From the IMG/VR virus record IMGVR_UViG_3300046171_000328, positions 4,523 through 68,522 of that record: a stretch of 64,000 nt of DNA; one strand, given 5' to 3'. Below are positions 12,121 through 35,960 of this stretch, in pieces. The DNA is from a virus. The notes beneath the pieces are model-generated. The model did not search any database, was not told the DNA's origin, and saw only the letters and a list, made by a program, of their open reading frames with translations. A program made the position numbers and the translations under genes. Each line of letters opens with the position of its first letter. The stretch's first letter is position 1.

Positions 12121-15100
12121 TCAATTAACTAGCACTGGAAAAGCAATGTCTGAAACAACTTTTACACCTCCAGCCGGTGTCGCTTCTGCCGCTAAGAGAG
12201 GTTTAGAGCTACGCCGAAAATTCAAACGTGGGGGGACCAGCGTTGGTGCAGCAAGGGCAGGCCAGCTTGCCAACAGAAATCCAGTATCTGCTTCCGTGAT
12301 CAAGCGCATGGTTTCTTTCTTTGCCAGACATGCGGTGGATGCGGAGGGTAAGGATTGGAACAACGAATCCAAACCAAGTAACGGGAAAATTGCGCATTTG
12401 CTTTGGGGCGGATCGGCGGGAAAGGCATGGGCTAATGCCATGGCCAAGAAAATCGACTCAGGGAATAAGAGCGTCAAAGAGGAGTACGAGAAAGGACTTG
12501 CTCTAGATCTGTTTGAAGAAAGATTTGCTGATCAGTTAATTTACGAAGAAACCTACCGTGAGCCTGAGTCTCAGGCAACGAGTCGCATTGAACGAGTGAA
12601 GAGTCTTGGACAACTAAAAAATGCCATTCGGATTGCCTTTGCCTCTACCGATGACATCCAAGCACAACTGAACACTCCGATTTCTGAATATCCATTCAAA
12701 CGCTCTGGAAGTTTCTTAGGCTTTGATCAAAAACCACTCACTGGGGGGCAACGTGAGGCTATCAACAGGGAGATCCTGCCGCTATTAGAAAAACCTTCCG
12801 ATGAACTTACAGATGCCGAGCGAGATCTAATTCGCCAGTATAGTGGTTTTGGTGGGACCAGTGGAGAAATTGAAGGTTCCAGTAATGTGGAAAGCGGAGT
12901 TGAATACGATTTTTATACTGCTAGTCCCGTGGCTCTATTTCAAGCCAAGCTGGTCAACAAGCTGGTGCAGATCAAACAAGGTGACCGTATCTTGGAACCT
13001 TCCTGTGGTGCAGGCGTTTTCTTTGATGTGCTACCTGATGGAGTTGAAAAGATCGGTGTTGAACTCGACAGCCGCACAGCGGCGGTAGCTCAGAGGATTC
13101 ATGGTGATTCGGTAGACATTCGCAATCAACCGATGGAGCTTTACCACCTTGAAGGAAATCCAGAGGTGTCAATAATTTTGGGGAATGCTCCCTTTGGACC
13201 CCGTGGCGACATCAAGCTACGAAATGCTGATGATCCGAAGGAAGGCAATCTGGATCGGTACTTTCTCAAGCGCTGTTTGATGCAGATCAAGTCAGGCGGA
13301 ATGATGTGCCTGCAGGTCCATAGCGGTGTCTTCCACAATCCAACCAACCGTGACTTTCGTCTAAAGCTGTTGCTGCTGGGCAAGTTCATGGGGGCTGTGA
13401 GGCTTCCAAACACGTCCTATGCCCATACTGGCAGCAACTTCGCCTCTCCGGACATCCTTATCTTTCAGCGTCATGACGAGCCATTTAAGAAGGCTCTGCA
13501 GCGAGTCTTTCATTCCAACCTGACGGAAGAAGAAATTACAACGCTATTGACCGCTTGTGGGCTGATGAATGACGCTTGGCTCAATGGGGCCAAGAAATAC
13601 TACATTGCCAATCGCCGGCACATGCTGGGAGAGGAAGTTGAGATTCCCGCCAGAGGTCGCACCACACGGGGAGAATTGCGTGCCGAAATTCTGGATGAGA
13701 TCTGGAGCAAGTTTAAGTTTGAAGAGTATCCGGAAGTCAACGCTGAACCACTGAACTCCGAGTTGATCAGGGGCACAGAAGAAAAGAAGCCGGCCACAGA
13801 TCGAATGATGCTCACACCCGATGAGCTTATCCTGCGTATGGATCGCCAGATCCGCACAGGCGCAACGAAAATTGTAGATGGCAACCTCTACATTCTGCGT
13901 GCTTCAACCGGTGTCAATGCGGTAGATGGAGAGTCTGAGGATCGGCCTTACTGGCAGTTGATCAACATTGCTGGCATTGCCGACAAGGTGGCTGCCATCA
14001 ACTTGATTGCAGATTCTGTTTCCAAGCTACGGGCTTTGTTTCATGGCAATGACCCAAGTGTGACAGACAAACAAAAAGCGATCATTGAAGCTCTGAAGGC
14101 TTATCAGAAAAAGTTTGGTGTTGCTCTCTTTGAAGATCCTGCTGTGCAGGGCTTGATCAAGCAGTATCCGGACATCGAAGGCATTATTGAGGCAACGACT
14201 CTGCAGGAGAGCAGGCAAACTGAAGACGGCGGGGAGGACCGCTATTGCTATTTGCTGAGTGCCGAGCCACCAGATGACAGCGGTGAAGAGTTTTCCGGCA
14301 ACCGTCCAGAAGTTGAGTTTCTGCGCAAGAATCGGCAGATGATGGGCAAGATGACCGAGCAGGCGGTGATTGGTCTGCTGGGGGCAGAAGCAGGCCAAGA
14401 CATGCTGAGATTGCTCTTTGAGAGCAAGTTTGTGTTTCCAGAGTTGGTAGATGGAAACTTGGTCTTTGTCCTCAAGGAGAACTATCTGGTGGGCCGTGTG
14501 ACGGTTCTGAGAGCCAAGCTGGAAGAAGAGCGAGAGTCAGCTACTTCAGAGGCATGGCGCGGCAAGTTTGCGCAAGCACTGGCCGAGTTGGAAAAGGCCA
14601 GAACCTTCAGTGAGTATGACAACATTGATGTTCAGATGAATTCAAACTTCATCAAGAATGATCAGATACAGCGCTACCTTGATCAGACGATCAATGCCAA
14701 CCTCTCAGAATTTCTCAAAGATGAAGATGATCGTGGGATTTCTTCAGCACACACCAACGACTACAGCGTTTATCAATTCGACAAGGACAATCTCCGGATT
14801 ACAGCACGGATGCTGCCTGATGACATCGATGGTAACGAACAAAGTTTCAATGATTGGGATGAACTCTTCACCAAATTCCGTGAAGGCCGCAAAAACATTC
14901 AAGCCTCATTGCCTGAACAACTGGAAGACTATACCAACGACCGCATGAAGGCTATTTACAATGACTTTTCGTACTATAATCGGCACGATACAACCCGTCT
15001 CGGCAGTTTGAATGGAGTTCGACTCGTATTGCGGAATTTTGGTGAAGATCAGGATCTCACCACCTTTCGGGCATCCAAAGTCCAAGCTGAGTACAGCCGT

Positions 15101-18100
15101 GAATTTGTCTGGTCTGTGGAGTCTACAGCACAGCAAAAGCCACAAGTTCAGGAATTGCTCAACAAAAAAATTGAAGAAGGCGTAATTGAAGCGGGTGAGT
15201 ACATTTACTATGACGAACTGCAGGATCGAATTTTCTCTGGTCAGATGAACAATGTGAAAGGTTTTATCATTCCGAATGACCGACGATATGGTAATTCTGC
15301 AGAACAGCCATTTGGCTCCAAGAAAAACGGGGCACATGCCACGAAGTATCTCAACAACCTCAACCGCATGTTAGCCGGCGGAAAGCCGGTGATTAAGAAC
15401 CAAGCGGACAAGTTGGCATTTGAAAAAGACTTCCATCAAAACTTCCGTGACTGGTTGGATGAAAATGACAATGAACAACGGGTAGTTGAAAAGTCATATG
15501 ATGAACGCAACAACGATGTTCTGAAGACTTCCAATATGGACTATCCAGTGGAGATCAAGGGCTGGAACTCCAAGGTCCAGTTGCGCTCTGTGCAGTGGCA
15601 GGCCATTCACCACTTGCTCAAAGGCCAAAAGGGAATTGCGGCCTTGGGTGTTGGTTTTGGGAAAACACTGGCCGCTGTGGGCCTCACAGGCGTATTGCTC
15701 CAAGAGAAGAGAGCCAAGCGTGTTTGGTGTCAGGTTCCCAACAACAAGGTCAAGGACTGGTCTGAAGAGTATAAGTTGGGCTTGCCCAATATAGAGTTGC
15801 TTTCTGCAAAGCCAGAGGATGCCAAAAACAAGCAGACTCGGATGAAGATTCTGAATCAACTGGCCAATGGGAATGCCTCGGTTTTGGTTATCCCCGAAAC
15901 GATTGGCACAGAGGTTCAGCTTTCAGCAGCAAAGGACGAAGAAATTGTTGAGATCCTTTTTCAGGATCAAATGCAATTTGTCACTGACGGCTCTCCAAAA
16001 CAGCGCAAGACCTATGCAACGAACTTGCGCAAGACTCTGGACACTTCCCAAGCACGCACAGCCAGTATCAATTTTGAAGAGTTCAAGTGTGATGCAATCA
16101 TTGTTGATGAGTTGCACCGTGAAAAAGCGCTCTTCAGTCCCTACCGAGTCAACACGCAAATCAGCCAACTGAACAAGAACGCTGATTCCACACGAGGCAT
16201 CAGCCTGCTCAAGAAAGAAGAATATCTGCGTCAAACCAATCCGAAGGGCAAGCCGAACACCTACGGATTGACAGCCACACCGATGACCAATTCTCCCTTA
16301 GAATTCTGGAACATGTTAGCGCACATTGACGCCGAGGCTCTGAGGGCCAACGGCATCAACGACTTGGGGAGCTTTGTACGCCAGTTCTGCATTCTTCGGA
16401 TGGAAATGCAACCGAACACCACAGGCGAGGGGTTGGTTGCACGACAGGTCCTCAAGGGCTTCAGAAACCTCGACCTGCTCCGCAAGGTATTTTATGACGT
16501 AGTAGACTACCAAGTCAGCCGAGAGGCGCTGGAAGCCGACTCCGAGTCCACATCAGGCGAAAAGGGGCGCAAGGCGGAAGTCCATGATGAAACACTTGCT
16601 CCAACACAAATGCTGCAGGACGTAACAGCATTCTTGAGAGCGCAGTATGAAAACCCCGAACTGGAAGAAGGGGAAGAGGAGGAGATGGAGGTTGAGGAAG
16701 GTGAAGAAGAGCAGGAAGAAGGGGTTGCAGCACAGACGGTAGACCAGAAACGCCGTGAGATCTGGCAGGACCTGCAGACCGCCGCTCTGGACTTGGAGAT
16801 GCTCGACCCTGTCAAGTACAAGGATGCCCCCAACAGTAAGCTCGACAAGATGATTGAGAACGTGATGAAGCATTGGACGGAATCGGGTAGTGGCCAGTTG
16901 ATTTTCTGTGACCGGATGAATGCTTCCAGAGGCCGTGGGGATGGGACTTACAATCTGCATGAAAAAATCAAAACACACCTGATTGATGCTGGTTTTCCGG
17001 CCAATAAAATTGCTTTGGTCAATGGGGCCGTCAAGGGTGCAGGAGACAAGCTATCCAAGGCTCAAGCACGGAAGATGGGTTCCTACATCGACCAGACCTG
17101 CGAAAAGTACAATGCCGGCGAACTGCGCCTGTTGATTGGCAACACGCCGTGTATGGGCGAAGGGTTGAACCTGCAGGCTGACAGTATTGCTGTGCATCAC
17201 TTTGACATTCCGTATCGCCCTTCAGATTTGGTGCAGCGCAATGGTCGAGTAGACCGGCAGGGCAATAAGCAGATGACTACTCATCTTTACAACTATAGCA
17301 CTGCTGGAACTCTAGACAGCTACTCACTGGTTCAAATCAAGCTCAAGGCAAACTGGCTTCAGGAATTACTCCAGTCCGATGTGACCGTCTGGGAGAATCC
17401 AGAAACAGATGCGTTGGCCAATGATCCACTAACGATTCAGATTTTGTTGGCTGAGTCTGCTGGTGATTTGGAAGCTCTGGAAGACTTGAAGATGCGAAGG
17501 GACCTGATCGTGACTCAGGCAGAGCGCAAGCAACGTGAAATCGATGCTGCAGACAACTTCAAGTCTCTCAACATTGCCATGAATGCAATGCTCAAGATGG
17601 AGCCAGATACACCGGAATATCGCAATGCGATGAAGCGTGTCAATAAGTTCAGGCGGGTTCTCAGGGACAATCCTGAATTCAAGATGCAGGAGCTACTGGA
17701 GGAGGACGCTGAACCGTTTATGATTTGGGGCAAACCCAAGAACGTCAAAGCAGCCGCACTTCGCAACGGAAGAACCGTGATCCGCAAGGGTGATTACTAC
17801 CACAACCTGCGAGGGAATCTACAGTCGTACTGGAAAGTTGTCGGTTTTGCTCCATCCACTCAAAAAGTCTTTTTGGAAGCAGTCAGTGAGTATGAGCCAA
17901 AGAAAGATCCTGATGATGAAAATGAACCGTTGCGACCACGCAAGGGGTATTTCTATGCCCTAGATGATCCGCCGTATGATGGAAGTGCTAAAAATCTTGA
18001 TCAACGAGGAAACTTCAAAAAAGTCCCCAGAGCGATGCTGGACCCAGAAACGATGGCGACTTTGGCAGCCACCACCAAAGGGGCAATGCAGGAAATGAGT

Positions 18101-18844
18101 GTCGATCAGCAGGTCAACGTTGTTCAAGCCATGCTGATGACGAGGTTGACCGATGAAGACGATACGTTTGCTATACGGAACTGGTTCAGAGACACACTGA
18201 ACCAGAACAATATTGATCCAAAATTCTTGTTGAATGGTCAATACTATGCCGTGGTTTACGGCAATGACATCTATTCTGGCAAGCCACTCCCTGCTGGCTC
18301 TGAAGGCTCTGAAGGCCTCAGAGAAGAATATGGCAAAGCCCTCACCATGCAGGGATTTATTCTACAAGGTTACCACATCAAAGACCGATATGCTGACCAT
18401 GAGAAATTCGCCAGACACCTATTCAAACATGGAGAGAGTTCTAAAATCTTGACACCACCACTGGGCGAGACTCCAGAGAAGTTCTCCTCTCACCTGATAA
18501 AATACATTCAGAAATTACGGACGAGCGCAGCCTTTCAACTGACAGCATCCCGTGATGATTCGAAGGATTTCCGCGAAATGCTGACCAATGATAATGACTT
18601 CATTCAGTGCTGGGCCGAGCATCTTGAACTCTTTGCCAGAACGTATGGCAGAAAGGTGATGAGTCAGGGACGTGGCAGTGGAAAGCCGGATACCCAATGG
18701 GACCGCTTCTACTTTGAGTTGTTCATGCCTCTGTCGATGCGCTCCAGAGATTTCCATGATGCCTTGACAGAATACATTCGTGGGAAGTACCCAAATAAAG
18801 ATGAATTCGACTTTAACGGCAAAACGTCATATAAGTTCTTTTGA
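12110..18844 (+). CDS. darB: DarB-like N6-methyltransferase plus SNF2 helicase
   Basis: ILEPSCGAGVF and GNAPF methylase motifs; GVGFGKT, DELH, LTATP, GEGLNLQ, QRNGRVDRQG helicase motifs; 2244 aa, followed by ulx. Confidence 0.9.
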   Translation: MATDQLTSTGKAMSETTFTPPAGVASAAKRGLELRRKFKRGGTSVGAARAGQLANRNPVSASVIKRMVSFFARHAVDAEGKDWNNESKPSNGKIAHLLWGGSAGKAWANAMAKKIDSGNKSVKEEYEKGLALDLFEERFADQLIYEETYREPESQATSRIERVKSLGQLKNAIRIAFASTDDIQAQLNTPISEYPFKRSGSFLGFDQKPLTGGQREAINREILPLLEKPSDELTDAERDLIRQYSGFGGTSGEIEGSSNVESGVEYDFYTASPVALFQAKLVNKLVQIKQGDRILEPSCGAGVFFDVLPDGVEKIGVELDSRTAAVAQRIHGDSVDIRNQPMELYHLEGNPEVSIILGNAPFGPRGDIKLRNADDPKEGNLDRYFLKRCLMQIKSGGMMCLQVHSGVFHNPTNRDFRLKLLLLGKFMGAVRLPNTSYAHTGSNFASPDILIFQRHDEPFKKALQRVFHSNLTEEEITTLLTACGLMNDAWLNGAKKYYIANRRHMLGEEVEIPARGRTTRGELRAEILDEIWSKFKFEEYPEVNAEPLNSELIRGTEEKKPATDRMMLTPDELILRMDRQIRTGATKIVDGNLYILRASTGVNAVDGESEDRPYWQLINIAGIADKVAAINLIADSVSKLRALFHGNDPSVTDKQKAIIEALKAYQKKFGVALFEDPAVQGLIKQYPDIEGIIEATTLQESRQTEDGGEDRYCYLLSAEPPDDSGEEFSGNRPEVEFLRKNRQMMGKMTEQAVIGLLGAEAGQDMLRLLFESKFVFPELVDGNLVFVLKENYLVGRVTVLRAKLEEERESATSEAWRGKFAQALAELEKARTFSEYDNIDVQMNSNFIKNDQIQRYLDQTINANLSEFLKDEDDRGISSAHTNDYSVYQFDKDNLRITARMLPDDIDGNEQSFNDWDELFTKFREGRKNIQASLPEQLEDYTNDRMKAIYNDFSYYNRHDTTRLGSLNGVRLVLRNFGEDQDLTTFRASKVQAEYSREFVWSVESTAQQKPQVQELLNKKIEEGVIEAGEYIYYDELQDRIFSGQMNNVKGFIIPNDRRYGNSAEQPFGSKKNGAHATKYLNNLNRMLAGGKPVIKNQADKLAFEKDFHQNFRDWLDENDNEQRVVEKSYDERNNDVLKTSNMDYPVEIKGWNSKVQLRSVQWQAIHHLLKGQKGIAALGVGFGKTLAAVGLTGVLLQEKRAKRVWCQVPNNKVKDWSEEYKLGLPNIELLSAKPEDAKNKQTRMKILNQLANGNASVLVIPETIGTEVQLSAAKDEEIVEILFQDQMQFVTDGSPKQRKTYATNLRKTLDTSQARTASINFEEFKCDAIIVDELHREKALFSPYRVNTQISQLNKNADSTRGISLLKKEEYLRQTNPKGKPNTYGLTATPMTNSPLEFWNMLAHIDAEALRANGINDLGSFVRQFCILRMEMQPNTTGEGLVARQVLKGFRNLDLLRKVFYDVVDYQVSREALEADSESTSGEKGRKAEVHDETLAPTQMLQDVTAFLRAQYENPELEEGEEEEMEVEEGEEEQEEGVAAQTVDQKRREIWQDLQTAALDLEMLDPVKYKDAPNSKLDKMIENVMKHWTESGSGQLIFCDRMNASRGRGDGTYNLHEKIKTHLIDAGFPANKIALVNGAVKGAGDKLSKAQARKMGSYIDQTCEKYNAGELRLLIGNTPCMGEGLNLQADSIAVHHFDIPYRPSDLVQRNGRVDRQGNKQMTTHLYNYSTAGTLDSYSLVQIKLKANWLQELLQSDVTVWENPETDALANDPLTIQILLAESAGDLEALEDLKMRRDLIVTQAERKQREIDAADNFKSLNIAMNAMLKMEPDTPEYRNAMKRVNKFRRVLRDNPEFKMQELLEEDAEPFMIWGKPKNVKAAALRNGRTVIRKGDYYHNLRGNLQSYWKVVGFAPSTQKVFLEAVSEYEPKKDPDDENEPLRPRKGYFYALDDPPYDGSAKNLDQRGNFKKVPRAMLDPETMATLAATTKGAMQEMSVDQQVNVVQAMLMTRLTDEDDTFAIRNWFRDTLNQNNIDPKFLLNGQYYAVVYGNDIYSGKPLPAGSEGSEGLREEYGKALTMQGFILQGYHIKDRYADHEKFARHLFKHGESSKILTPPLGETPEKFSSHLIKYIQKLRTSAAFQLTASRDDSKDFREMLTNDNDFIQCWAEHLELFARTYGRKVMSQGRGSGKPDTQWDRFYFELFMPLSMRSRDFHDALTEYIRGKYPNKDEFDFNGKTSYKFF

Positions 18845-18867
18845 ATAATCTTTTTTAGGGGTGAAAA

Positions 18868-19302
18868 ATGGAAGTAGACCCAGTCACTGGAATGCAGCAC
18901 CGCTATGATCTCGCAACTTTGCGAGAGGGTGTGGACCGCATCGAAATTCCTCACACACAATTCCTCAACGATAAAGCCCGAAACATTGCCGAAATGTTGC
19001 GCAATGATCCCAAGTGTCATGAGCGCTTTGGTATCTACTGGTTTGTGATCAAGGAACTCTTGGTCAATCGGGCTTATGATTCAGACGCATGGTGGCGTTT
19101 CAACAGCCGCAACGATTACATCTACGAACTGACAGACCGTGGTGACGAATTGCTGAGTATTTTGCAGGGGCTTTACTACTTTGAAGAAAACTGGTCTGCC
19201 ACGGCATCACAATACTACTACCGAGACGGTGTGGCGTGGCACTACTCTGTCACCGATGAAGACTTTTTGAATTCTGGTGCAGGCGTGGAGCTTCCATCAT
19301 GA
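18868..19302 (+). CDS. ulx: Ulx-like DarB packaging chaperone
   Basis: LRNDPKCHERFGIYWFVIKELLVNRAY resembles recalled P1 Ulx LKNPRLYRSYGPYWPEIKKLLLERGY; similar size and position after darB. Confidence 0.8.
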   Translation: MEVDPVTGMQHRYDLATLREGVDRIEIPHTQFLNDKARNIAEMLRNDPKCHERFGIYWFVIKELLVNRAYDSDAWWRFNSRNDYIYELTDRGDELLSILQGLYYFEENWSATASQYYYRDGVAWHYSVTDEDFLNSGAGVELPS

Positions 19303-22300
19303 GCATTGTACTGATTGAACGTGCCCGAACCTACACTCGCCTGCGGGATGCCGTGGAGGGGATGATTCGTCCCACACCACCCACGACACCGCACCTGAAG
19401 GCCGCCAGAGCGGCTTTGGATACCGATGCGACTCGTTACCTGCGTTTGCGTTTGAGTGGCATACGGGACGATGAGGCAATGGCAGGGCCTGATGGGGATT
19501 ATGCGGACGAAAGTGACACGATGCCACTGGAGACACTAGCTTCTCAGAATTTTGAGCTATTGACTGGTGAAATGGCTGGTGGTGTTCGCAAAAACAAAGT
19601 TGGGAACTTGCTTGAACAGGCCTACCACCGTGCAAATGAACTAGGGAAACCTGTCTATATTTTTGCGAAGTCTGCTCCTACAGCCCAGATTCACAAGGGC
19701 TTGGACTATCGATTGACCGATGAGTTCACCGATTGGCAAAAGTACGCCTACCATGGCGAATACATGGGCTACGAAGTGTTTCCACGGGGCATGGTCCGTA
19801 AGCTGACCACCAAGCCAAATGTTGAACAGTTGAGCCGCATGGACAACTCTGACACCCGCATTTCGTTGGATATTTTCCGCAGCTACAACCAACTAGAGGC
19901 TTTCCATCTAGCGGCTCTGCCAGAGTTGATCGAAACGACAGCCGGCGAACTGCACAGCTTGGGTGATGAAGGGCGTGCCTTGGCTTTTGAAGTCCAAAGT
20001 TTTCTGGAAGATTCCGATGGGATGATCATTCATCCATCGATGGCCCGAAGCGGTGGTATCAGTGATCGGGATCTGGCCAGAGCCAAAAAAGAAATGGACA
20101 GAGACAACTTGGACAATCCCGATGCTCACTGTGAGGACCTCTTGCGTGGGACGCTACCTCCAGAGGCTCTAAAAGAGCGCAAGTTGGCTGTTTTGGAAGT
20201 GATGAACAACTATGTCATGAACTTGGGGAGTTTGCCGGCAGCGATCAATGGATTTGGCCAGAACTATTTTAAATTACCTGTCAGTGATGCCACCTTCCGC
20301 AAGATCTGTTTGCACATGCGTTTTGCTGTACCCTTTGGGGCACGTCTAAAGTACGCCCTGTCGTACTTGACCAGAGTCCGTAGCGGTCAGCCGGCTTTTT
20401 GGAAAAGGCCGCTGATGGATGCGCTGGACCGTCTAATCAAGGAAGAAAGAGCCAAGCCGTCAATCTTCAAACCACAGCACAGCGAAGACATTCTCTCCAT
20501 GTACTTGGGAGAGTGGGAAAGCCTGACACATCAAAGAATGCAGGATGTCGAAGTATCCTTGATCTGGGATGCCTACAAGGGCAATGGAGATGCCCAGATT
20601 GGAGCCTTACCTGAGAACATGGAAGTCAATCAATGGACCAGAGAGCTAAACAATCGCATCATTCCGGTGATGGAAAAGAATGAACCGAATTATCGGGAAC
20701 TGCGCAGATACCTAGAGTCCAAAGAACTCAGCTATGCTTATGATCTAGAAATTTTCAAAAAACGCTACGAACGAGGTGACGATGCAGGAAACGAATCAGG
20801 AATTGTTTCTGGAGACGGAGGAGGAGACTTCGACTTTGGAGACGGAGGAACAACAAGCCTCAGTAAGCGAGAGATTCTGGGCAGGGCTGATGTGGAAAAA
20901 CGTTATCGAGACGCAGGAGTCGCACTCACTCGACGCGAAATATCAGGCATCACCAAAACTCAACACCTTTCCGAGCTTTATGCTCGAACTCTGAAAACGC
21001 ACCAGAACGACGGGTGCAACCTGATCTTGGAAGCACATCAAAAGAGCAAGGGGTTTGTACTGGCCGATGGCACAGGTGCAGGCAAGACGATGCAGGAGCT
21101 TGCGGTAGCCCTGCACTATTCCGATATGGGCAAGATGGTGCTGGTGGTAACCAAAGACAAGAAAGTGATTCAGGGAGCATTCCGTGGTGATTTTCAACGT
21201 TTTGAAACCAATCAGGAGCGCTTGGAGCATCTGCCGGATGCAGCACAACCGTTTGACTCCAACAACATCTACATCACCACTTACAACCGACTGCATGAAG
21301 CACGACAACATCAATGGGACATTGTTATTTTTGATGAAGCACATGCTGCTAAAAACCTGATTAATAGTAACCCATCTGCACAAGCTCAATATGTAGTGGA
21401 GTTGATGGACAAGGCAGAAAAAGTAGTTTGTGCTACAGCTACGCCTGCCGACAAGGGCTACCAGATGGCCTACCTGTGTAGAATGTGGGGGATTGACCCA
21501 TATATGATGGTTCAACGCATGGGCTTGGAATTTGATCCAACCTTTGGCTGGCAATCTGGCGAAGGCCTAGACAAAGAATCACAGGCTGGCATTGAAGCCA
21601 ACATCATGCAGGACTTCATGCGAGAGGCCACGAAAAAAGGCTTGATGGTCAAACGTGAAGTATCCATGGCCAACTTGGACTATATCAATCAGCAAATTGA
21701 ATTGTCACCGGATTGGCGTGCCATGTACGAAGCACTCAATCGGCACTACCAACAGTTGTGGCAAATGGCTAAAGGCATTGCCAAGGGAACCATCAAAGGG
21801 CAGTGGATGCTGAATGTGCGACGCTTACTGGACATTGCCAAGGCCGAGGCCGCAGGTTTTGCGGCTCTGGATGAACTCAAGGCAGGTCGCAAGGTGGTGG
21901 TCTTCTCTTGTGCAGTGGAAGACACACAGGACATTGCCGAGCAGATTCAAAGCGAACGTGCTGCAATGTACGAAATGACGGATGAAGAAATTGATGAATC
22001 GATCAATAAATTACGGGGCAAGGCCACAACAGGTCGAGTTAGCGATATGATTCAACAAGCTGGTTATCGGGTCTTTGAGATGACAGGGAAAAGAACTGAC
22101 AAACAGCGCAATGCGGCAGTAGCCCAATTCCAAGCTGGTGAACTGGATGCCATCGTTACGACTTTTGACTCTGGAGGAACCGGCATCAATCTAGACGATA
22201 CTGTTGGAGATTCCCCCCGTAGCGTGGTGATTACACAGCCACCGTTTGGGGCCAATGATGTGATTCAGGGCCTTGGCCGAGTCAATCGCTTGACCACCAA

Positions 22301-23132
22301 GAGCCGTGCAAAGGCTATTCAGCTAATGACCAATCTGGCAATAGACGATTGGAACCAGAGCTTGGTGGCAACCAAGCTGCAACGCTTGGGAGGGGCTGTT
22401 GGGGGTGATTATGGTAAAATTGATCTAAACAAGATTGCAGACCTCGACAACGGTGAAATTCAGAAGTATTTGCGGGAATCTGGTGTTCCTTCACGCCGAC
22501 CAATTCCCGTGGGCAGTGATGAAGATGAGCCAGACGTAGGGGATGCAGGAGATCGTGAACTTCCCCCAGAATGGTTCACTATTCCTGAAGACTTGGCTGA
22601 TGCCGTTGATCAGCTAGAAATGAAAGCGCCCTTTGAACTGATTCGTGATGAGGCTTACCCCTACTTGGTCGATGCGACTTTCTACAGTATTGGGGCCTTG
22701 CCCAATCCGATACTGAAATATGGCCCAGATCGTGGGTCCTTGATGTTTGATAACTTTGAGCGTGGGTGCTACATCGCTTCAAAGACTCTGAACAAAACCA
22801 TGGAAGAGATCTCACACCGTATTCGCAACGGTTCTTTTGTGGTGGTCCCTGCGCCAGCAGAGATTCCGGATCTGGTCGAATATTATCTGGTCAAGTGTGA
22901 GAAAAAAGACCGTGAATTAGTACAATCTCATGGAGGTGTTTACGATGCTGACTCCAAGCTATGGAAAGTCCCTGTTGAACGTTGGCCCAATCTTGATGAT
23001 GAAGCACGATCCAAAAATGTGGTCATACTTCAAGTCAAGCAAATTTCAGAAGGAATTCAGAGACATCAAAAAGCAGTGAGGAATGCTGAGTTCATTCCTG
23101 TGATCGACCTCGGCGGTTATCAGGGCTATTAA
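19299..23132 (+). CDS. Strawberry notch-family SF2 helicase-like protein
   Basis: GFVLADGTGAGKT, FDEAH, ATATP, GGTGINLDDTVGDSPR, QGLGRVNR. Confidence 0.85.
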   Translation: MSIVLIERARTYTRLRDAVEGMIRPTPPTTPHLKAARAALDTDATRYLRLRLSGIRDDEAMAGPDGDYADESDTMPLETLASQNFELLTGEMAGGVRKNKVGNLLEQAYHRANELGKPVYIFAKSAPTAQIHKGLDYRLTDEFTDWQKYAYHGEYMGYEVFPRGMVRKLTTKPNVEQLSRMDNSDTRISLDIFRSYNQLEAFHLAALPELIETTAGELHSLGDEGRALAFEVQSFLEDSDGMIIHPSMARSGGISDRDLARAKKEMDRDNLDNPDAHCEDLLRGTLPPEALKERKLAVLEVMNNYVMNLGSLPAAINGFGQNYFKLPVSDATFRKICLHMRFAVPFGARLKYALSYLTRVRSGQPAFWKRPLMDALDRLIKEERAKPSIFKPQHSEDILSMYLGEWESLTHQRMQDVEVSLIWDAYKGNGDAQIGALPENMEVNQWTRELNNRIIPVMEKNEPNYRELRRYLESKELSYAYDLEIFKKRYERGDDAGNESGIVSGDGGGDFDFGDGGTTSLSKREILGRADVEKRYRDAGVALTRREISGITKTQHLSELYARTLKTHQNDGCNLILEAHQKSKGFVLADGTGAGKTMQELAVALHYSDMGKMVLVVTKDKKVIQGAFRGDFQRFETNQERLEHLPDAAQPFDSNNIYITTYNRLHEARQHQWDIVIFDEAHAAKNLINSNPSAQAQYVVELMDKAEKVVCATATPADKGYQMAYLCRMWGIDPYMMVQRMGLEFDPTFGWQSGEGLDKESQAGIEANIMQDFMREATKKGLMVKREVSMANLDYINQQIELSPDWRAMYEALNRHYQQLWQMAKGIAKGTIKGQWMLNVRRLLDIAKAEAAGFAALDELKAGRKVVVFSCAVEDTQDIAEQIQSERAAMYEMTDEEIDESINKLRGKATTGRVSDMIQQAGYRVFEMTGKRTDKQRNAAVAQFQAGELDAIVTTFDSGGTGINLDDTVGDSPRSVVITQPPFGANDVIQGLGRVNRLTTKSRAKAIQLMTNLAIDDWNQSLVATKLQRLGGAVGGDYGKIDLNKIADLDNGEIQKYLRESGVPSRRPIPVGSDEDEPDVGDAGDRELPPEWFTIPEDLADAVDQLEMKAPFELIRDEAYPYLVDATFYSIGALPNPILKYGPDRGSLMFDNFERGCYIASKTLNKTMEEISHRIRNGSFVVVPAPAEIPDLVEYYLVKCEKKDRELVQSHGGVYDADSKLWKVPVERWPNLDDEARSKNVVILQVKQISEGIQRHQKAVRNAEFIPVIDLGGYQGY

Positions 23133-23899
23133 ATGATTGAAGAGCGCAAACTTACTGACTCTGAAAAAGAGGCCAAGGAGAGCTATTTAAAGCGCTTTAA
23201 GAAGAAGGACCGATTCAAGGACAGCAAGGGGAAACTGAATTCACTCAGTTATGCCATCGCCACCAAGTATGCCAAAGAAGGGAAAAAGTATCCGATGAAA
23301 GAGGATTTCACATCAGAAGAATTGGAAGAAATTCTTGAGGGATCGACAGCAGAGAAATCAAACCCAAAGCTGTGGGCACAATGCAAGGCAGAAGCAAGCT
23401 TCTAATGGGCGGAGTCCATAGCGCACGCGCAATGCAAAGCTGCCGTGGCCTATATAAAAAGCGCGGAGGCAAGTACAAGGGACCGAAAAAGAGTGATAAC
23501 AAACTGGCCAAGTGGACGAAGCAGGACTGGAAAACCAGCAGTGGAAAACCATCTGAGGGCAAGCGTCGCTACCTACCCGCCGCCGCTTGGAATTCGATGA
23601 CCAAGAGCGAAAAGGCCCAGACCAACGCTGCCAAGGCCAAAGCTCACAAGGAAGGCAAACAAGTATCCAAGCAACCCAAAAAGGTTGCTGCCAAAGCCAA
23701 GAGCTTCCGTGAGGAGGTGTCTAGCGAAACCACTTCAAACGACATTCCCATCCGAACAAAGGCAATCATGGCAAAAAAGAAGAAGGACAAGGACCCGAAA
23801 GAGCCAATCAAAGAATTGACGAATGTAGAACGCAAATATCTTTTGGCATTGATTGACGAAGCACACAAGGACCTCAGTGGCTCAAGCACCGCGCAGTAA
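23133..23899 (+). CDS. Basic DUF5872-like phage protein (one frameshift near 23397)
   Basis: ORFs 23133-23405 and 23372-23899 join with one added A; SARAMQ...YKKRGGKY, KWTKQDWKTSSGKPS...RYLP motifs. Confidence 0.65.
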
Positions 23900-25583
23900 A
23901 AAAGAAGACGAGAGCTTTGAGTTTGGCAATGTTGCCACGGCTCTGGCGGGACTATTCGGCAAGCAGAAAAAGGTCACCAGCGAAGAACTGGCACATACCG
24001 ACAGCATGTCGGCATCTGGTGGGGATTTTAACCAGAACAATCCATTTGACGAATGGGATAAATCGTTAGGTGGAACCGACAAAAAGATCCTCCGTGAACT
24101 GCCTCGACACCGTAATCAGAAATACGCCATCTATGACCGCATGTGCATGGACCCGATCATCTATGCCTGTCTGAAGCTCCATGCCAACACCGCACTCTCC
24201 TATGATGAAGAAAACGCTGAAATTGTGACGGTTAAGTACGTTGGTGATGAAAAGGACAAAGCCGCACAGGAAATGGTCGAGGACCTTGGCCAGTTGATGG
24301 AGCGCTTGCAGATCACTGAGCGTTTATTCACTTGGGGGTTAGATGTCCTCAAGTATGGAATGTGGTCTGTGAGAGTTTATGGAGAACGTGGTAAGGGCGT
24401 CACCAACGTGATCAGCAATGCCTTGACTCATCCCTACACACTCAAGATTTATGAACGCTCTGGCAAGCTGGCTGGCTTTACCAGTATGTATCAAGTCTCC
24501 AATGGCGAAGAATATGAGTTGATGGCCCCATGGAGCTTTATTACGTTTCGAATGCAGGGCCATACTGATGATCCAACGACCAGCTTGAGCAGTACCGAAA
24601 ACCGTAATCAGTGGAACATTGGAGCCGATGCGCCCTCTGAGGCGTTGGTCGAATCATGGAACTATGGCCGCTCCATCTTGGAGGGTTGTTTTCTGCCGTG
24701 GCTGGACCTGCAGGAAAGCGTGATTGCGCTCAACATGAGTCGGCGTAACAAGAGCAAGCGGGACCGAATGATTGGCTTTCCTGTTGGCGGACAAGCGCCA
24801 GCAAGAGCCGCAGCGCTTACACAGGCGATTGCGCAACGGCTCAAACAGCGCAAGTTGCTGGATGAAGAAAAGCGGCAGGCCGGCGGTTATGTAGCTTCTC
24901 AGGAGGACTTTTTACTGCCGTATGATTCGCAGACAGGCAACGGGAAACTGGAATTCAGCACCATCGAACCAAATGCGGATGTCAGTGCCATTGAAGATGT
25001 CATGTTTCATGTGAAACGTGTGGCTGGGTCACTGGGGTTGGACCCTGCGCTGATTGGCTTTGGAGACATGCTGGCCGGTGGGCTGGGTGAAGGAGGTTGG
25101 TTCCGCCAATCGATTTTAGCCGCAGCAACAGGAGAGCAGCTCCGACGTTCGATTTCGATAGGCCTCAACCGTATGTTCGAAATTCATCTAGCCTACAAGT
25201 ACAAGACCGCCTATCCGCCGAACAAACGCCCGTGGGAGCTTCAGTTTCATGCAGCCAGTAGTGCCAAGGAAATTGAAGAAAATCAGTCTAAGTTATTGAA
25301 AATGGACCTGACAGACCGGCTGAACCAAACGGTGCAGGCCTTTCGGGAAGCAGGAGTTGGCATTGACGCCACAAAGTTTGCCAAGTATTCGATTCATCAT
25401 GTGTTGGGGATGGATGAAGGCGAATGGGAGGAGCTTTGGGACAAGAAAGCACCACCGGCAGCCGAGGGGAGCGCTGAAGCCTTTGCTACCGGAGGTGGGG
25501 GCGGCAATGAGGGGCAATCACAAAAACCGCCACAAGCTGGCCCAGAGGCCGTCAACAGGGCTGCCAGAGAAGAGGATGACTGA
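23853..25583 (+). CDS. prt: Portal protein, P1 Prt-like
   Basis: ELPRHRNQKYAIYDRM...IEDVMFHVKRVAGSLGLDPALIGFGDMLAGGLGEGGWFRQS resembles the recalled P1 portal; true start may be GTG 23877. Confidence 0.9.
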   Translation: MTKHTRTSVAQAPRSKKEDESFEFGNVATALAGLFGKQKKVTSEELAHTDSMSASGGDFNQNNPFDEWDKSLGGTDKKILRELPRHRNQKYAIYDRMCMDPIIYACLKLHANTALSYDEENAEIVTVKYVGDEKDKAAQEMVEDLGQLMERLQITERLFTWGLDVLKYGMWSVRVYGERGKGVTNVISNALTHPYTLKIYERSGKLAGFTSMYQVSNGEEYELMAPWSFITFRMQGHTDDPTTSLSSTENRNQWNIGADAPSEALVESWNYGRSILEGCFLPWLDLQESVIALNMSRRNKSKRDRMIGFPVGGQAPARAAALTQAIAQRLKQRKLLDEEKRQAGGYVASQEDFLLPYDSQTGNGKLEFSTIEPNADVSAIEDVMFHVKRVAGSLGLDPALIGFGDMLAGGLGEGGWFRQSILAAATGEQLRRSISIGLNRMFEIHLAYKYKTAYPPNKRPWELQFHAASSAKEIEENQSKLLKMDLTDRLNQTVQAFREAGVGIDATKFAKYSIHHVLGMDEGEWEELWDKKAPPAAEGSAEAFATGGGGGNEGQSQKPPQAGPEAVNRAAREEDD

Positions 25584-25894
25584 TGTTTGTATTTGAAATT
25601 GAAAACAAGGACGCAAGGGCACAAATCAGCTTTCCAACAGATGATTACCATGCCCGATCCACCGCAATTACTTCTGGAGATCCAGAGCTATTGAAAATGT
25701 TAGCCGATTGGGTCCCAGCGCAGCTTGGACCCTTTGGACATCCGGTGGCTTGGCCTGATCCCTTTGTGCAGGACTTTGACTATGTCCTTTTGGGAGAGCG
25801 AGGAAAGCGAGAGTGGCCCTATGCGGCCCGTTTTGTTTCAGGGGATCGTGGAGACTGGTATGAACACAAACTTCCAGAAGGTATGGTTCCATGA
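25583..25894 (+). CDS. Small protein, positional DdrA analogue
   Basis: 103 aa, overlaps the ddrB-like start (ATGA); size and position match P1 ddrA, sequence similarity weak. Confidence 0.45.
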   Translation: MFVFEIENKDARAQISFPTDDYHARSTAITSGDPELLKMLADWVPAQLGPFGHPVAWPDPFVQDFDYVLLGERGKREWPYAARFVSGDRGDWYEHKLPEGMVP

Positions 25895-27876
25895 GTCTGG
25901 ACCCCAAGAAACTCATCGCTCAGATTTCAGAAGTTAGTATGTCCAATATTTTCTCACTGGTATTGGACAACGAGGACTATAAAACGGGACATTCAACTGG
26001 CTTGGACGCCACATTGACAAAGATTCCACAACCCTCAAAAAGTCTTGGAATCTACCATCTGAATCTTGGGGGTTATGCGTTTCAACTCAAGGAGGATGAT
26101 GACAATTATTTGACATATGACGGCCTGATGGAAGTCACCGATCACTTTCTGAAGCGACTTTCCAAGCAGATCAAGAATGCAGATATTCTGTGGGCAGATC
26201 TCAAATATCCACAAATCAACAGTCATCGTGGTGAAGGCGAACATGAAATTCGTAGTCTGATGCCGTTTCACAAAACAGAAGGCATTGACCCACTTGATTT
26301 TCTGAAAAAGGAAGCAGGCAATCTACAAGAGCGTGATTTGTCGGCAGCAATGAAACAAAGATACTATCTTTGGAACCCCAAGAGTTTGCCAATTCTCAAA
26401 GAAACGGCACAGCAGGGCGAGTTGTTTGTGCCTCAGTGGCTGATGGAGCTTAAAGGCAAGGGATCATTCAGACCAGACTTTCAAGGCATTGATCGAATTT
26501 ATGGAAGACTCAACAAGGTGACAGCCGTTAAAAACTTTGAAAGCCGTCCAATCAGCATGATGGCCGATGGTCATGAACTTGGGATTGAGGCGCTGGGAGG
26601 ACCAAGTGACACCATGCTGAGTGCCAGAAAGGTTGGAAACTTCATGGCCAGCGCCGCTCGTCAGTTTATGAGTGTTTCTACAGCCAGCTTTGGTGATGAA
26701 GCGAAAATGCAGAGAAATTACGAAAACCTCCGTACCGTTGTGGCTTCACTCTGCATCGATGCCAGAGACTTGGTGGACGAAGCGGGTGCTGCTACGACTC
26801 ATGAAGAATTTACAAGGCTCAAACAAAACAGCCTGTTGATGCACCGCAAGGATTTGGTGGAAGGGCACAAGGAACGGTTGGCAAAAGGGAAAGAATCACT
26901 AAGTCATGTGGACGGGCTAATGGTTTTTTATAACAGTGAAATCATGGCCGAGATGATGTCGAGTCCAGAGTATGCAGAAAGCAAAAGGCTGAATGAATAT
27001 GTAATCTCCTCCATGTTTGAACATGCCATCTACGATGGAGACTTGAGCAGATGGAAAGACGGCACTAGCGAATGGATTGACTTCAATGATACGGAAAGAA
27101 ATCTAATGCTCCAAGTGCTGCCGAAAATCACAAGAAAGATGCAAAAAGCGGTTGCTGAAGCTCAAAAGAAAACCTTTATTGATTCGTCACCACTACCTGA
27201 TGAAGAAGCACAACGCTTGACGGATGCTACCGATGTGCGGTCAGCAAACCTGACAAGAATGGGATTGGTGGCCAGTCCAAAGTACAAAATGAGTGAGAGC
27301 AAGAAAAAAGAAATCACCGACCGGCTTTTCAATTTTCATAAAATGACCAATGGAGCCGCTACCACTTTGAAGATGGTTGGCATGTCCAATAAGAAAAGTT
27401 TACGAGCCTGTGCCTCAAGACGTGGATTTATTGCACTCAACAATAGTGACACTTCATCAACCTTCTACCATGAAATGACTCATCACTTGGAGTTCAGCCA
27501 CAAATGGATTTATGAAGCGGGACAGGCTTTTTTGTTGGATAAGGTCGGCAAAAAGATTGAAACCAAGACTATGTCTGCGTTGGTCAAACAACGCTACATG
27601 AAAAAATGGGGAATCACAGATGCAAGCTCCGTCCGAATTCAGACCGGTTATGGTCGAAATGAAGTGGCATGGAATGCTGAAGTTTCAGAACCCTATCTGG
27701 CCAAGGAATATTCAGACAATTCCAGCGAAGTGATTACGATGACGATGCAGGATCTTTTGTGTGAAGACGAAAAGTCCTTTAAGCGGTTTATGGAACAGCG
27801 CAGGGACTATCCGGATGAGGTCGCGTTTGCAGCAGGGCTACTCAAGCAATTGCAAGAAGGGAAAAAGGCCGCATGA
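25891..27876 (+). CDS. ddrB: DdrB-like internal protein with HExxH metallopeptidase domain
   Basis: RACAS...FYHEMTHHLEFSH...AFL...YLAKEY...SEVITM resembles the recalled P1 DdrB C-terminus (WHELGHHLEYS...YMAKVY...TEVFSM). Confidence 0.75.
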   Translation: MSLDPKKLIAQISEVSMSNIFSLVLDNEDYKTGHSTGLDATLTKIPQPSKSLGIYHLNLGGYAFQLKEDDDNYLTYDGLMEVTDHFLKRLSKQIKNADILWADLKYPQINSHRGEGEHEIRSLMPFHKTEGIDPLDFLKKEAGNLQERDLSAAMKQRYYLWNPKSLPILKETAQQGELFVPQWLMELKGKGSFRPDFQGIDRIYGRLNKVTAVKNFESRPISMMADGHELGIEALGGPSDTMLSARKVGNFMASAARQFMSVSTASFGDEAKMQRNYENLRTVVASLCIDARDLVDEAGAATTHEEFTRLKQNSLLMHRKDLVEGHKERLAKGKESLSHVDGLMVFYNSEIMAEMMSSPEYAESKRLNEYVISSMFEHAIYDGDLSRWKDGTSEWIDFNDTERNLMLQVLPKITRKMQKAVAEAQKKTFIDSSPLPDEEAQRLTDATDVRSANLTRMGLVASPKYKMSESKKKEITDRLFNFHKMTNGAATTLKMVGMSNKKSLRACASRRGFIALNNSDTSSTFYHEMTHHLEFSHKWIYEAGQAFLLDKVGKKIETKTMSALVKQRYMKKWGITDASSVRIQTGYGRNEVAWNAEVSEPYLAKEYSDNSSEVITMTMQDLLCEDEKSFKRFMEQRRDYPDEVAFAAGLLKQLQEGKKAA

Positions 27877-29588
27877 ATCAAATTTCTATTGACCAGATCC
27901 AATCGGCAACCAGCTACCAAGACCTACGCAGGGCGGTCTTTGAGGCGTTGCCCAAGGCAAAGGCAGAACCAGTAGTAGATTCACCTGAAGTTGCTGAATT
28001 AAAGGCAAAGCTCAAAAAGCTGGAAGCTCATCAAGATCTGATGAAGAGAGCTAATCCAATCATCAAAAAATATTACAAGCTAGACGTTAGAGATGCTAGC
28101 TCTCTCAATTATCCGGCCTACGCCAAGGCCATTCATCAGTTGAATCAGGATAGAGGAGAAGAGCCGTTTGCACAGAAAACACTAGAGTTGATGCTCAAGC
28201 CTGATTTTGCAAATCGCATCGGATTTCCCGCTTTTGAGCTAACCAGTGTTAATGACAAAATCAAACGCATTAAAGCCAATTTGGCTAAGTTGGAAGCACA
28301 ACAGCCCAAAGTAGAGCCAGATCCAGAACCAGAGCCAGTCATTGAGCCGAAGCCAGATCCATATGCGATGAAACTTCCGAAAATCAAAAAGGGCCAGAAG
28401 TTTCTTCTCAACGGTGAAGAATACACATTTCTACGGTTCAATCAGGCCAGAATGAACCAAAAAGGGGGCAGGCCGGTTGTGGCAGTGAAGACCGGCTCCA
28501 CAGAATTCAGTAATCTTTCACTGATCGCTTTTCGGGATGCAAAACCTATTGAAGAAGAACCAGAGCCAACCGTTGAGCCAGAAGCTGTAACTGGCAATTC
28601 ATTGAGTGTGGAAGTGGCCTTGGACGATCCACAGTATGGGCGTTGGAATGCTACAGCCAAGGCCTTGTCCTTGATGGCTAATGAACTGAAAGAACAGATT
28701 GCTAAGAAGGGGTCAATTGTTTATCGGCCTGCTCAAATCAGCGAAGCCACCGAAGAGGACCTGTTGAAAATTATTAGTGTGCAATCCATATATTCGGACA
28801 CGGAAAAATATGCTGATAAACCAGAAGGGTTTACGGCAGGGATCTTCATTCGCCATGAACCTGAAAACGGGCAACGCTTCCACCCTGCAGACTTTTGCTG
28901 GTACTCCGAAAAATTCGGAGACAACGTAAGGATTTCTTCGAATATCGGACAATTCAAAAAGGGGATACCGGTTGACCCAGACGAGGGCTACAAATATTTA
29001 TCAGCAATCACCAGTGCCGTTAAGATGGAACCCGAACCAACCGTTGAGCCAGAGGACGAAGGAGAAGAGGAAACCAGCATTGCTCAATATACCGCAGACC
29101 TGTTCAACTCCTTCGAAGTGATTTTGATGACCGATGGCATTGGGACCAGCGAGGATGCTGCTTTGTTCTATTGTCCCATCAAGGTCGATGGAGTGAAGAC
29201 AATCGATGTGCCAGCAGGGATGCAGAAGAAAATCAACAAGGGTGTCCGTGTAGCAACCGTTTACCATGTCAAGACGGGCACAAATGATACACTTGCACAC
29301 CTGACGCTTCTAAAGGAGCGTGGTGCGAAGTTATTACTGACAGGAGTACAGCCAAGGGAAGCAGCTAATTTTGCTGCTGACATGGCTTCTCGCTATCCAA
29401 GATTGCAGTCAGAAATTCATAGGGCTAAAAATGACGGAGATCTGACTGAAATTTTCCGTACCGTTGAGCTTTTGGGAAAAATGCAGAACAGCGAAATGCG
29501 AACCCTAGACTTGGCCGCCGAATTGGGTGTGCCAATCTACATTCGGGAAGACTACTCCCGAAACCTCTCTCTCTTTATTCAGGAGTAG
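27873..29588 (+). CDS. Multidomain protein with DUF3560-like domain; putative capsid cargo
   Basis: LKAKLKKLEAHQDLMKRAN...PDFANRIGFPAFELT...IKRIK; domains joined by EPEPTVEPE linkers. Confidence 0.6.
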   Translation: MNQISIDQIQSATSYQDLRRAVFEALPKAKAEPVVDSPEVAELKAKLKKLEAHQDLMKRANPIIKKYYKLDVRDASSLNYPAYAKAIHQLNQDRGEEPFAQKTLELMLKPDFANRIGFPAFELTSVNDKIKRIKANLAKLEAQQPKVEPDPEPEPVIEPKPDPYAMKLPKIKKGQKFLLNGEEYTFLRFNQARMNQKGGRPVVAVKTGSTEFSNLSLIAFRDAKPIEEEPEPTVEPEAVTGNSLSVEVALDDPQYGRWNATAKALSLMANELKEQIAKKGSIVYRPAQISEATEEDLLKIISVQSIYSDTEKYADKPEGFTAGIFIRHEPENGQRFHPADFCWYSEKFGDNVRISSNIGQFKKGIPVDPDEGYKYLSAITSAVKMEPEPTVEPEDEGEEETSIAQYTADLFNSFEVILMTDGIGTSEDAALFYCPIKVDGVKTIDVPAGMQKKINKGVRVATVYHVKTGTNDTLAHLTLLKERGAKLLLTGVQPREAANFAADMASRYPRLQSEIHRAKNDGDLTEIFRTVELLGKMQNSEMRTLDLAAELGVPIYIREDYSRNLSLFIQE

Positions 29589-35402: not shown

Positions 35403-35960
35403 TCACGCTTTTACTTTCCAAAAGCAATTTTCTTTAGAGTATGGTTTCGACCTGTCAATACACCGCAGAGTCGTGTTTTCGGGCCTCTCTCCCATGTCTC
35501 TGAGAAAGTTATTGAACCCTCCTTGACCCTTCCATTCCTCGCAGACCGTGTTTCTGGCGGTCATAGCGTGCCAACAGGTGTGCATAGGCGTTGGCTTGCC
35601 GGTTGTTTTGTCAATACGGTGACCATGAGTGGTATCACCTCTGACTGTTCTATTGTAGCAATTCTCTCGTCGAGTGGCCCAGCGGATGTTGTTAATGTAG
35701 TAATTACCCTTGTTGTCTGGGTATCGATCCAAATCACAAAGTTTTCCGGTCGCTTCATCGATTGGTGGTTCTCCCAACCTTGCTCCAACTTCGTTGATAA
35801 AGTTGGTACATGCAACTCTGCTATCAACAATTCTGTTGTCCCAGTGATCATGAGTCTTGACGTGCCCATAATATTGATGATCGTATTTCAGTCGAGCCAT
35901 CATACGGTTCCACTTATTCCCAAGTGGAGTCTTGATCAGTTCTGCCAAAGTCTTTTCCAT
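35403..35960 (-). CDS. HNH-type homing endonuclease-like protein with two HNH-like units
   Basis: DLDRYPDNKGNYYINNIRWATRREN; second unit FLRDMGERP...IDRSKPYSKENCFW. Confidence 0.75.
   Translation of the reverse strand: MEKTLAELIKTPLGNKWNRMMARLKYDHQYYGHVKTHDHWDNRIVDSRVACTNFINEVGARLGEPPIDEATGKLCDLDRYPDNKGNYYINNIRWATRRENCYNRTVRGDTTHGHRIDKTTGKPTPMHTCWHAMTARNTVCEEWKGQGGFNNFLRDMGERPENTTLRCIDRSKPYSKENCFWKVKA

Follow-up and report, generated by a model that had tools for sequence, protein, structure and literature searches.

Does a virus with a P1-type Dar system mark the proteins that it loads into its head with a common peptide? The question is raised by a 64,000-nucleotide stretch of DNA (the window) comprising bases 4523-68522 of the 68,522-base uncultured virus record IMGVR_UViG_3300046171_000328, which is judged about 59% complete. 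The head of phage P1 packs six Dar proteins, and to our knowledge a P1 targeting signal is known for DarB only. In the window, a short amphipathic helix motif lies on the plus strand in three genes: as IERVKSLGQLKNAI in a DarB-like protein (12587..12628; residues 160 to 173, internal, after an extra N-terminal domain), as IERARTYTRLRDAV in a Strawberry-notch-type superfamily 2 (SF2) helicase (19314..19355; residues 6 to 19), and as IQSATSYQDLRRAV in a 571-amino-acid modular protein (27897..27938; residues 9 to 22). Its core is hydrophobic-x-x-[AV]-x-[ST]-[YL]-x-x-L-x-x-[AV]-[VI], and a proline-rich linker follows the helix in the helicase and in the 571-amino-acid protein. Translation placed the three peptides exactly where a first-pass annotation of this DNA had put them, and the N-terminal location that it gave for the helicase (residue 6) and the 571-amino-acid protein (residue 9) was also correct. 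We give an even chance to the reading that this helix is a capsid-targeting sequence of the P1-type Dar system, that is, a label for cargo that is coinjected with the DNA.

The evidence that the motif is more than a local resemblance comes from unseen sequences. We averaged BLOSUM62 scores over the N-termini of three helicases from outside the window and used this profile to scan the other 63 window proteins (18,226 14-mers). The DarB-like site at residue 160 ranked first (score, 24.33), and the site at residue 9 of the 571-amino-acid protein ranked second (22.0). As decoys we used 99 DarB-like proteins from elsewhere, forward and reversed. None of the 413,112 decoy windows reached 22, with one at 19.67, and over 200 shuffles of the window proteome, windows with a score of at least 22 averaged 0.005 per proteome. 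We found the hydrophobic skeleton in only 50 decoy windows, the best of which scored 20.0. The link between the helicase and the 571-amino-acid protein held in the reverse direction as well: the site of P0002, a relative of the 571-amino-acid protein, by itself ranked helicase residue 6 first of 18,932 (score, 29; expected, 0.09). With the helicase profile, the best 14-mer of the whole protein was the aligned site both in P0007, the closest relative of the DarB-like protein (residue 30; 17.67), and in P0002 (residue 79; 15.0).

The regular expression proposed in the first-pass annotation, which has 10 specified positions, was matched at no more than 7 of them among 206,556 decoy 14-mers, a value reached by 2 of these. 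At the homologous position of unseen relatives, it was matched at 9 of 10 positions in P0005 and at 8 of 10 in P0128 and P0002; P0127, P0007, and D6 DarB each matched at 6 of 10. The expression was overfitted at positions 2, 3, and 11. Going by these sequence comparisons, the motif is a conserved element whose resemblance across families exceeds decoy expectation. The decoy and homologue results therefore dispose of the possibility that it is unconserved and scores no better than random amphipathic helices: no decoy reached 22, and all four known helicases of the family carry it.

These four helicases are all that an exhaustive HMMER search with helicase residues 1 to 560 returned from 1.84 billion representatives: the window's own protein, P0005 (48%), P0127 (41%), and a fragment, P0128 (54%). 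The helix stands at the N-terminus in each, beginning at residue 4 in P0005 (IQNASTLEQLKTAI), 6 in the window protein, 7 in P0127 (VDAAYSLRQLIDAV), and 10 in P0128 (ILRVRTYERLRTVV), and a proline-containing stretch follows at most 8 residues after it in all four. P0005 gave no BLASTP alignment before residue 127, so the helix is kept where its surroundings are not. The window helicase itself (19299..23132, plus strand; 1277 amino acids) matches Pfam AAA_34 at 48.1 bits (cutoff, 27), as well as ResIII, SNF2-rel_dom, and Helicase_C, and its Helicase_C_4 match (29.1 bits) is slightly below the cutoff of 30.5. Further relatives were scarce. A word-index search for helicase relatives found P0005 only, and the sole match of the metagenome scan (L002) was a 96% helicase relative, uninformative here, whose helix is identical. 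tblastn of the helicase and the 571-amino-acid protein against 50,697 phage records gave no match; scans of viral contigs with the helicase, the 571-amino-acid protein, the portal protein, alignment A1, P0007, P0005, P0127, and P0002 returned no relative, nor did a genome-contig scan with alignment A4. An AlphaFold2 (AF2) model of helicase residues 1 to 175, built from a 3-row alignment, had a mean predicted local distance difference test (pLDDT) score of 45, with residues 1 to 97 below 50; the helix that it places at residues 2 to 23 therefore carries no evidential weight. A predicted complex of the Ulx-like protein of the window with helicase residues 1 to 60, run without controls, scored 0.01 (mark, 0.32) and was uninformative either way.

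The third protein (27873..29588, plus strand) has two relatives, P0002 and P0003, to which residues 160 to 237 and 388 to 571 are common at 95 to 97% identity. P0002 and P0003 differ from the window protein in their middle modules, which lie between EPEPTVEPE-type linkers. In P0002, an ART-PolyVal domain (1.7e-15) has been swapped in between the shared modules, behind the same helix, which fits a modular label with variable cargo. Both relatives carry LESANNYPDLRRAVFEALPKAK at residues 79 to 100, after a 78-residue N-terminal piece that is absent from the window protein; the conserved stretch of the helix continues to FEALPKAK and recurs at residues 79 to 103 of P0002 and P0003. The window protein has the same linker-separated build as P0002 and contains no Pfam domain. 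The "DUF3560-like" label given to it earlier has to be dropped, as we found no Pfam DUF3560 match even at an E value of ≤1; its sole matches are those of phrog_19458 and phrog_6744 to residues 38 to 148. Its own linkers (28296-28352, 28539-28586, and 29028-29072) are near-identical acidic proline EPEPTVEPE sequences. Recombination at such linkers may be how cassettes are exchanged.

Could the resemblance nonetheless be a coincidence, with each family keeping its own amphipathic helix and with an N-cap serine or threonine and a 3-4 hydrophobic spacing being common? Taken by themselves within the window, the three peptides are not significant. We computed in-window statistics for ungapped 14-mers in the 64-protein gene set (20,322 residues), using BLOSUM62. 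The pair scores among the three peptides, summed by hand, are 29, 28, and 18. Between-protein 14-mer pairs scoring at least 28 numbered 2,747, those scoring at least 29 numbered 1,889, and there were 1,151 triples from three different proteins with an equal sum-of-pairs score, spanning 334 protein triples. The helicase and the 571-amino-acid protein form the sole N-terminal pair scoring at least 28, but the median best score of the nulls was higher, at 30 for native 25-mers and 29 for shuffled N-termini, and a pair of at least 28 arose in 85% (random native 25-mers) and 77% (shuffled N-termini) of 500 trials. Also on the side of coincidence, BLASTP found no similarity between the proteins around the motif sites, and a DarB-family profile (P0007, D6, and P1) left the helicase and 571-amino-acid sites outside its top 8 window matches. 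Single chance matches near 20 do occur, as shown by a segment of a D6 tail fibre to which the helicase profile gives 20.67. Set against these points are the decoy results, in which neither window site was equaled by a profile made from unseen sequences, the rarity and low maximum of the hydrophobic skeleton, the 8 to 9 of 10 regular-expression positions at the homologous sites of three unseen relatives versus a decoy maximum of 7, and the link between the helicase and the 571-amino-acid protein in both directions. We therefore regard coincidence as quite unlikely.

The three proteins had been called otherwise unrelated. This is too strong a description, as the DarB-like protein and the helicase both hold SF2 helicase domains, even with no BLASTP similarity around the motifs. 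A repeat element at the DNA level was rejected: the 76-base stretches at the three sites share only scattered identical columns. In the 4.7 kb of the record that precede the window, the best score was 10.67, and the motif had no further copy there.

What connects the helix to the head is its relation to the N-terminus of P1 DarB. Three papers are cited here and below for selected passages (PMC9024508, PMC12810830, and PMC5512222). The first-pass annotation had stated that N-terminal residues direct P1 DarB into the head, and this holds: the first 30 residues are sufficient to bring TetR-mCherry into heads and the first 9 are insufficient (PMC9024508). The authors of that work expected a common N-terminal signal among Dar proteins, and their BLAST comparison showed no consensus (PMC9024508). 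In our MAFFT alignment A3, the window site, P0007 residues 30 to 43, D6 DarB residues 8 to 21 (ISEASSLGELIEIV), and P1 DarB residues 8 to 21 (VFRCSSVSEILKYI) fell in one block, and the LTDxERxxIxxYxGxGG block further downstream in the DarB proteins was aligned as well. At a distance similar to that in D6 and P1 DarB, the window helix lies about 60 to 70 residues upstream of that block. No other 14-mer of the 2278-amino-acid D6 protein scores as high with the helicase profile as this D6 segment (16.67). P1 DarB and D6 DarB are 47% identical over their first 100 residues, and the P1 segment retains little of the motif beyond its hydrophobic spacing and the serine. Judged by these alignments, the site in the window DarB-like protein is positionally equivalent to the N-terminal segment of P1 and D6 DarB. 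A further MAFFT alignment (A7; unguided, seven 40-residue segments) put the window sites in register with D6 and P1 DarB residues 8 to 21, P1 DdrB residues 7 to 20 (VVMATSIETLIELL, then KNLP), and D6 DdrB residues 9 to 22, all in a single block. The P1 DdrB segment begins as far from the start of its protein as the motif does. A scan of P1 DarB and DdrB, suggested at the outset, thus gave in-register alignment but weak scores (8.0 for P1 DarB and 12.33 for P1 DdrB). Two differences from the P1 DarB signal stand out: the window has the helix on three proteins, and the P1 Dar set lacks a counterpart for two of these; in the window DarB-like protein, the helix is internal, with low identity to P1.

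The DarB-like protein (12110..18844, plus strand; 2244 amino acids) matches phrog_10089, "DarB-like antirestriction" (6e-75), and Pfam ResIII and Helicase_C. It is laid out as an extra N-terminal domain (residues ~13 to 123), the helix, an N6-adenine methyltransferase, and an SF2 helicase. tblastn matched it to 161 phage records, including the P1-like D6 and SJ46 (26 to 27% identity), and among the 25 matches listed, all alignments begin at residue 210 or later. Foldseek matched the model to the M.TaqI, M.BseCI, and type I HsdM folds, i.e., to a methyltransferase fold. Among the best 120 of 145 DarB-like relatives, similarity extends over the motif in one alone, the closest relative P0007 (52% identity). 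The first ~150 residues of the window protein have no counterpart in P0007, which carries ISDAKKLSQLLMAV at residues 30 to 43, close to the N-terminus but past the 30-residue mark.

The helix could be real and shared and still serve another purpose, such as binding a partner after injection, oligomerization, or structurally capping the next module. In the AF2 model of DarB-like residues 1 to 500 (mean pLDDT, 71.8), the block means are 77 to 89 for residues 161 to 180 and 77 to 95 for residues 161 to 200, so that residues 161 to 200 belong to a confidently modeled unit. The same model splits the motif into the end of a helix (151 to 161), a turn (162 to 165), and a second helix (166 to 177). 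The predicted structure suggests that the DarB-like helix may be packed into the methyltransferase module instead of forming a free tag. Another purpose would also suit the internal positions at residues 160 and 79, which are unusual next to known N-terminal capsid-targeting sequences, and the fact that other DarB-like lineages conserve N-terminal strings of other kinds, QLxLF-like ones among them. Three observations speak against it: in alignments, the DarB copy falls on the stretch of P1 DarB that suffices for head targeting, all three genes lie among head genes, and a proline-rich linker follows the helix in the helicase and the 571-amino-acid protein. On this evidence we consider another purpose rather unlikely.

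The packed helix just described, the window statistics, the DarB-family profile, and the D6 tail-fibre match all weigh against capsid targeting, as do the following results. P1 DarB matches 3 of the 10 regular-expression positions and scores 8.0. The best 14-mers within the first 35 residues of DdrB are weak, at 12.33 in P1 and 12.0 in D6, values equaled or exceeded in 5 of 198 background N-termini; in D6 DdrB, the best 14-mer is at residue 19, whereas the aligned site at residues 9 to 22 scores 5.67. The P1 DarB deletion series is mixed: deletions of residues 1 to 4 and 11 to 30 were tolerated, and those of residues 16 to 30 and 21 to 30 were not (PMC9024508). The helix is internal in the window DarB-like protein (residue 160) and in P0002 and P0003 (residues 79 to 92); a position within the first 30 residues, as in P1 DarB, fits helicase residues 6 to 19 and residues 9 to 22 of the 571-amino-acid protein but not DarB-like residues 160 to 173 or residues 79 to 92 of P0002 and P0003. 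The family samples are tiny, with 4 helicases, 3 members of the 571-amino-acid family, and 1 close DarB homologue. A major capsid protein gene is absent from the record, at its ~59% completeness. The DarB-like proteins of PHB04, Lalka27b, and VvAW1 are without the motif. A motif common to all phages with DarB is thereby rejected, and any such label would be lineage specific.

Several further observations concern the DarB-like proteins. The extra N-terminal domain of the window protein (residues 13 to 123; 12146-12478) recurs 1 to 3 times in large proteins that begin with MPF[RQ]SQAQW[RK]WAFA, some of which carry PF19197 or PF18763. The DarB-like proteins of other lineages (P0008 to P0077) divide into groups that each conserve a distinct string at the N-terminus, and QLxLF-like strings occur in several groups (AEQLGLF, KAQLALF, and QLLFDF). 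We presume that these strings resemble beta-clamp-binding motifs. Bordetella phage PHB04 has its genes in the order DarB-like, Ulx-like, and SF2 helicase, and a similar hydrophobic-L-x-K-A string opens the DarB-like protein, the helicase, and gp28 (L007 2098-8391, 8999-9735, and 1543-2052).

The three motif-bearing genes belong to a single, tightly packed plus-strand block of tail-fibre, Dar, and head genes (3124-30504), which begins with the tail-fibre genes. A 298-amino-acid protein (6425-7321) is followed by a 776-amino-acid DarA_N-domain protein (7340..9670; Pfam DarA_N, 1.7e-8, 34.8 bits, cutoff 27), which is a candidate head-internal anchor, and an 812-amino-acid acidic protein (9682-12120) lies between this gene and the DarB-like gene. 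The proteins at 6425-7321 and 9682-12120 are in the places expected for Hdf, DdrA, or DdrB, and we found no family match for either. Directly 3' of the DarB-like gene is a gene for a 144-amino-acid Ulx-like protein (18868..19302; phrog_1629, "Ulx-like anti-restriction," 1.3e-8), whose stop overlaps the helicase start. Its similarity to D6 Ulx is weak (BLASTP E value, 3e-6; 32% identity over 38 residues). D6 Ulx likewise has 144 amino acids and is encoded directly 3' of darB, so the DarB-Ulx order is that of the window. Beyond the helicase are a T4-like portal protein (23853..25583; Portal_T4, 4.6e-12; phrog_1497, 1e-104), a 661-amino-acid protein (25891-27876) between the portal gene and the 571-amino-acid gene, and, directly after the latter, a prohead-protease-like protein (29593..30504; phrog_207, "head maturation protease," 1.6e-7). 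All of these genes are on the plus strand. The block is a P1-type Dar/head block, with a DarA_N protein, a DarB-like protein, an adjoining Ulx-like protein, a T4-like portal protein, and a protease. The earlier claim that a P1-type Dar system is present was well founded, as DarA_N, DarB-like, and Ulx-like proteins were all matched. As with P1 DarB, the DarB-type methyltransferase-helicase has Ulx directly 3' of it, near portal and protease genes.

The neighboring protease gene raises one more explanation for the motif, namely, that it marks a processing site of the prohead protease or the boundary of a T4-like propeptide, cleavage freeing the mature protein. The T4 prohead protease removes targeting peptides, at L/I-x-E, and [LIV]-x-E is found just after several copies of the motif, e.g., as VFE in the 571-amino-acid protein and ISE in the DarB-like protein. 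The N-termini of the P1 capsid protein and DarA are cleaved by Pro (PMC12810830). Against a processing site, the four helicases have no cleavage consensus at a fixed distance, and [LIV]-x-E is frequent by chance. In two of the three proteins, cleavage near residue 20 would take off nothing but the tag, which would be compatible with targeting, not a replacement for it. We consider a processing site very unlikely.

Other matches to the profiles within this block are side observations. The third-best match of the helicase profile is in the portal protein, at residues 421 to 434 (ILAAATGEQLRRSI; 25113-25154; score, 19.67; expected, 0.04). A C-terminal helix of the protease-like protein (VADTSELRQLMEAL; 30325-30366) comes fourth with that profile and is marginal (16.0; expected, 0.53), and it is the best window match of the DarB-family profile (20.67; expected, 0.04). 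Prohead proteases are targeted by terminal peptides; should the match prove real, the protease might dock at the same site. The 661-amino-acid protein, whose sole match is phrog_2299, has FYHEMTHHLEF near its C-terminus, an HExxH metallopeptidase-like string; Pfam gave no match. This string recalls the metallopeptidase predicted in P1 DdrB (PMC5512222).

Other parts of the window lie outside the head block. Directly past it are a replication-initiator/DnaD-like gene (32120-33070, minus strand) and a ParA-like gene (33562-34416, plus strand) whose product starts with MFKTITISNIKGGSGKTT; this pair suggests a P1-like plasmid-prophage lifestyle. The sole match to a terminase large subunit is a 310-amino-acid open reading frame (51213-52145, plus strand) that covers profile positions 253 to 458 of 807 (phrog_2, 9.6e-22), and the gene may be split or interrupted (51213-52145, with 50204-51226 and 52003-52791). 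Two genes matching PHROG families of HNH/homing endonucleases (35403-35960, minus strand, and 55285-56238, plus strand) share an SKP[YF]SKxNC[FY]WK module, with 1 copy in the former and 3 in the latter. This module gives the top 14-mer pair scores of the window, up to 67.

How might the helix act as a capsid-targeting sequence? The helix is conserved in relatives and aligns with the segment that sends P1 DarB to the head, and it is thus probably a common address label. In P1, DarA-Hdf pairs lie on the inner capsid surface, and the other Dar proteins depend on them (PMC12810830). By analogy, the helix would dock on a head-internal receptor during head assembly, probably a layer of the DarA/Hdf type or a partner that binds this layer. 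Helix-bearing proteins would be trapped in the procapsid and would exit with the DNA at infection. The cargo would comprise the DarB-like methyltransferase-helicase, the Strawberry-notch-type helicase, and the cassette-built, putatively polyvalent protein; for the last two, which would be new cargo, we infer docking, receptor, packaging, and injection alike. The first-pass annotation spoke of a modular address label. Conservation, alignment with the P1 DarB segment, and the module swap behind the helix favor this idea, but the helix is not always N-terminal.

The proposed label has precedents. The T4 IPIII targeting sequence is likewise a short N-terminal peptide that loads nonstructural proteins for injection, and it is portable to foreign proteins (PMC9024508). 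Polyvalent proteins are similar in another way, as multidomain effector arrays with cassette exchange whose repertoire includes DarA_N, DarB-type modules, and ART-PolyVal (PMC5512222). Phage-borne polyvalent proteins are predicted to be packaged in the head (PMC5512222), and the earlier notion of an "extensible delivery platform" overlaps with this concept. They differ from the window proteins in that their head association was argued from MuF-type domains and gene context, with no short tag in the passages cited; the phrase "N-terminal signal" had 0 occurrences when the text of PMC5512222 was searched for it. P1 DdrB provides a further comparison, as its N-terminal segment is in register, unlike in the weakness of its match.

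Capsid-targeting peptides of T4 internal proteins and of P1 DarB are known. New here would be a consensus common to several Dar-type cargo proteins and two new types of cargo; in the titles and passages (supplements excluded) of the literature on DarB with Ulx or the capsid and on the DarB capsid-targeting sequence, no such consensus appears. We put forward only tentatively, as a proposal that is on balance doubtful, the broader idea that Dar-type phages use a portable, sequence-recognizable docking helix as a common ticket to the head, carried by DarB and DdrB in P1-like phages and spread here to a Strawberry-notch helicase and a polyvalent protein. If it were true, injected cargo would be predictable from genomes by its tag, and other lineages would have further tags of this kind, each specific to its lineage, in the N-terminal strings of their DarB-like proteins. 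For P1 and D6, a shared helix would give the question of how Dar proteins reach the head a mutable target, at DarB residues 8 to 21 and DdrB residues 7 to 20. The likely injected antidefense cargo would also grow by two kinds of protein, a Strawberry-notch-type helicase and a modular polyvalent one, and the cargo of uncultured phages could be read from sequence.

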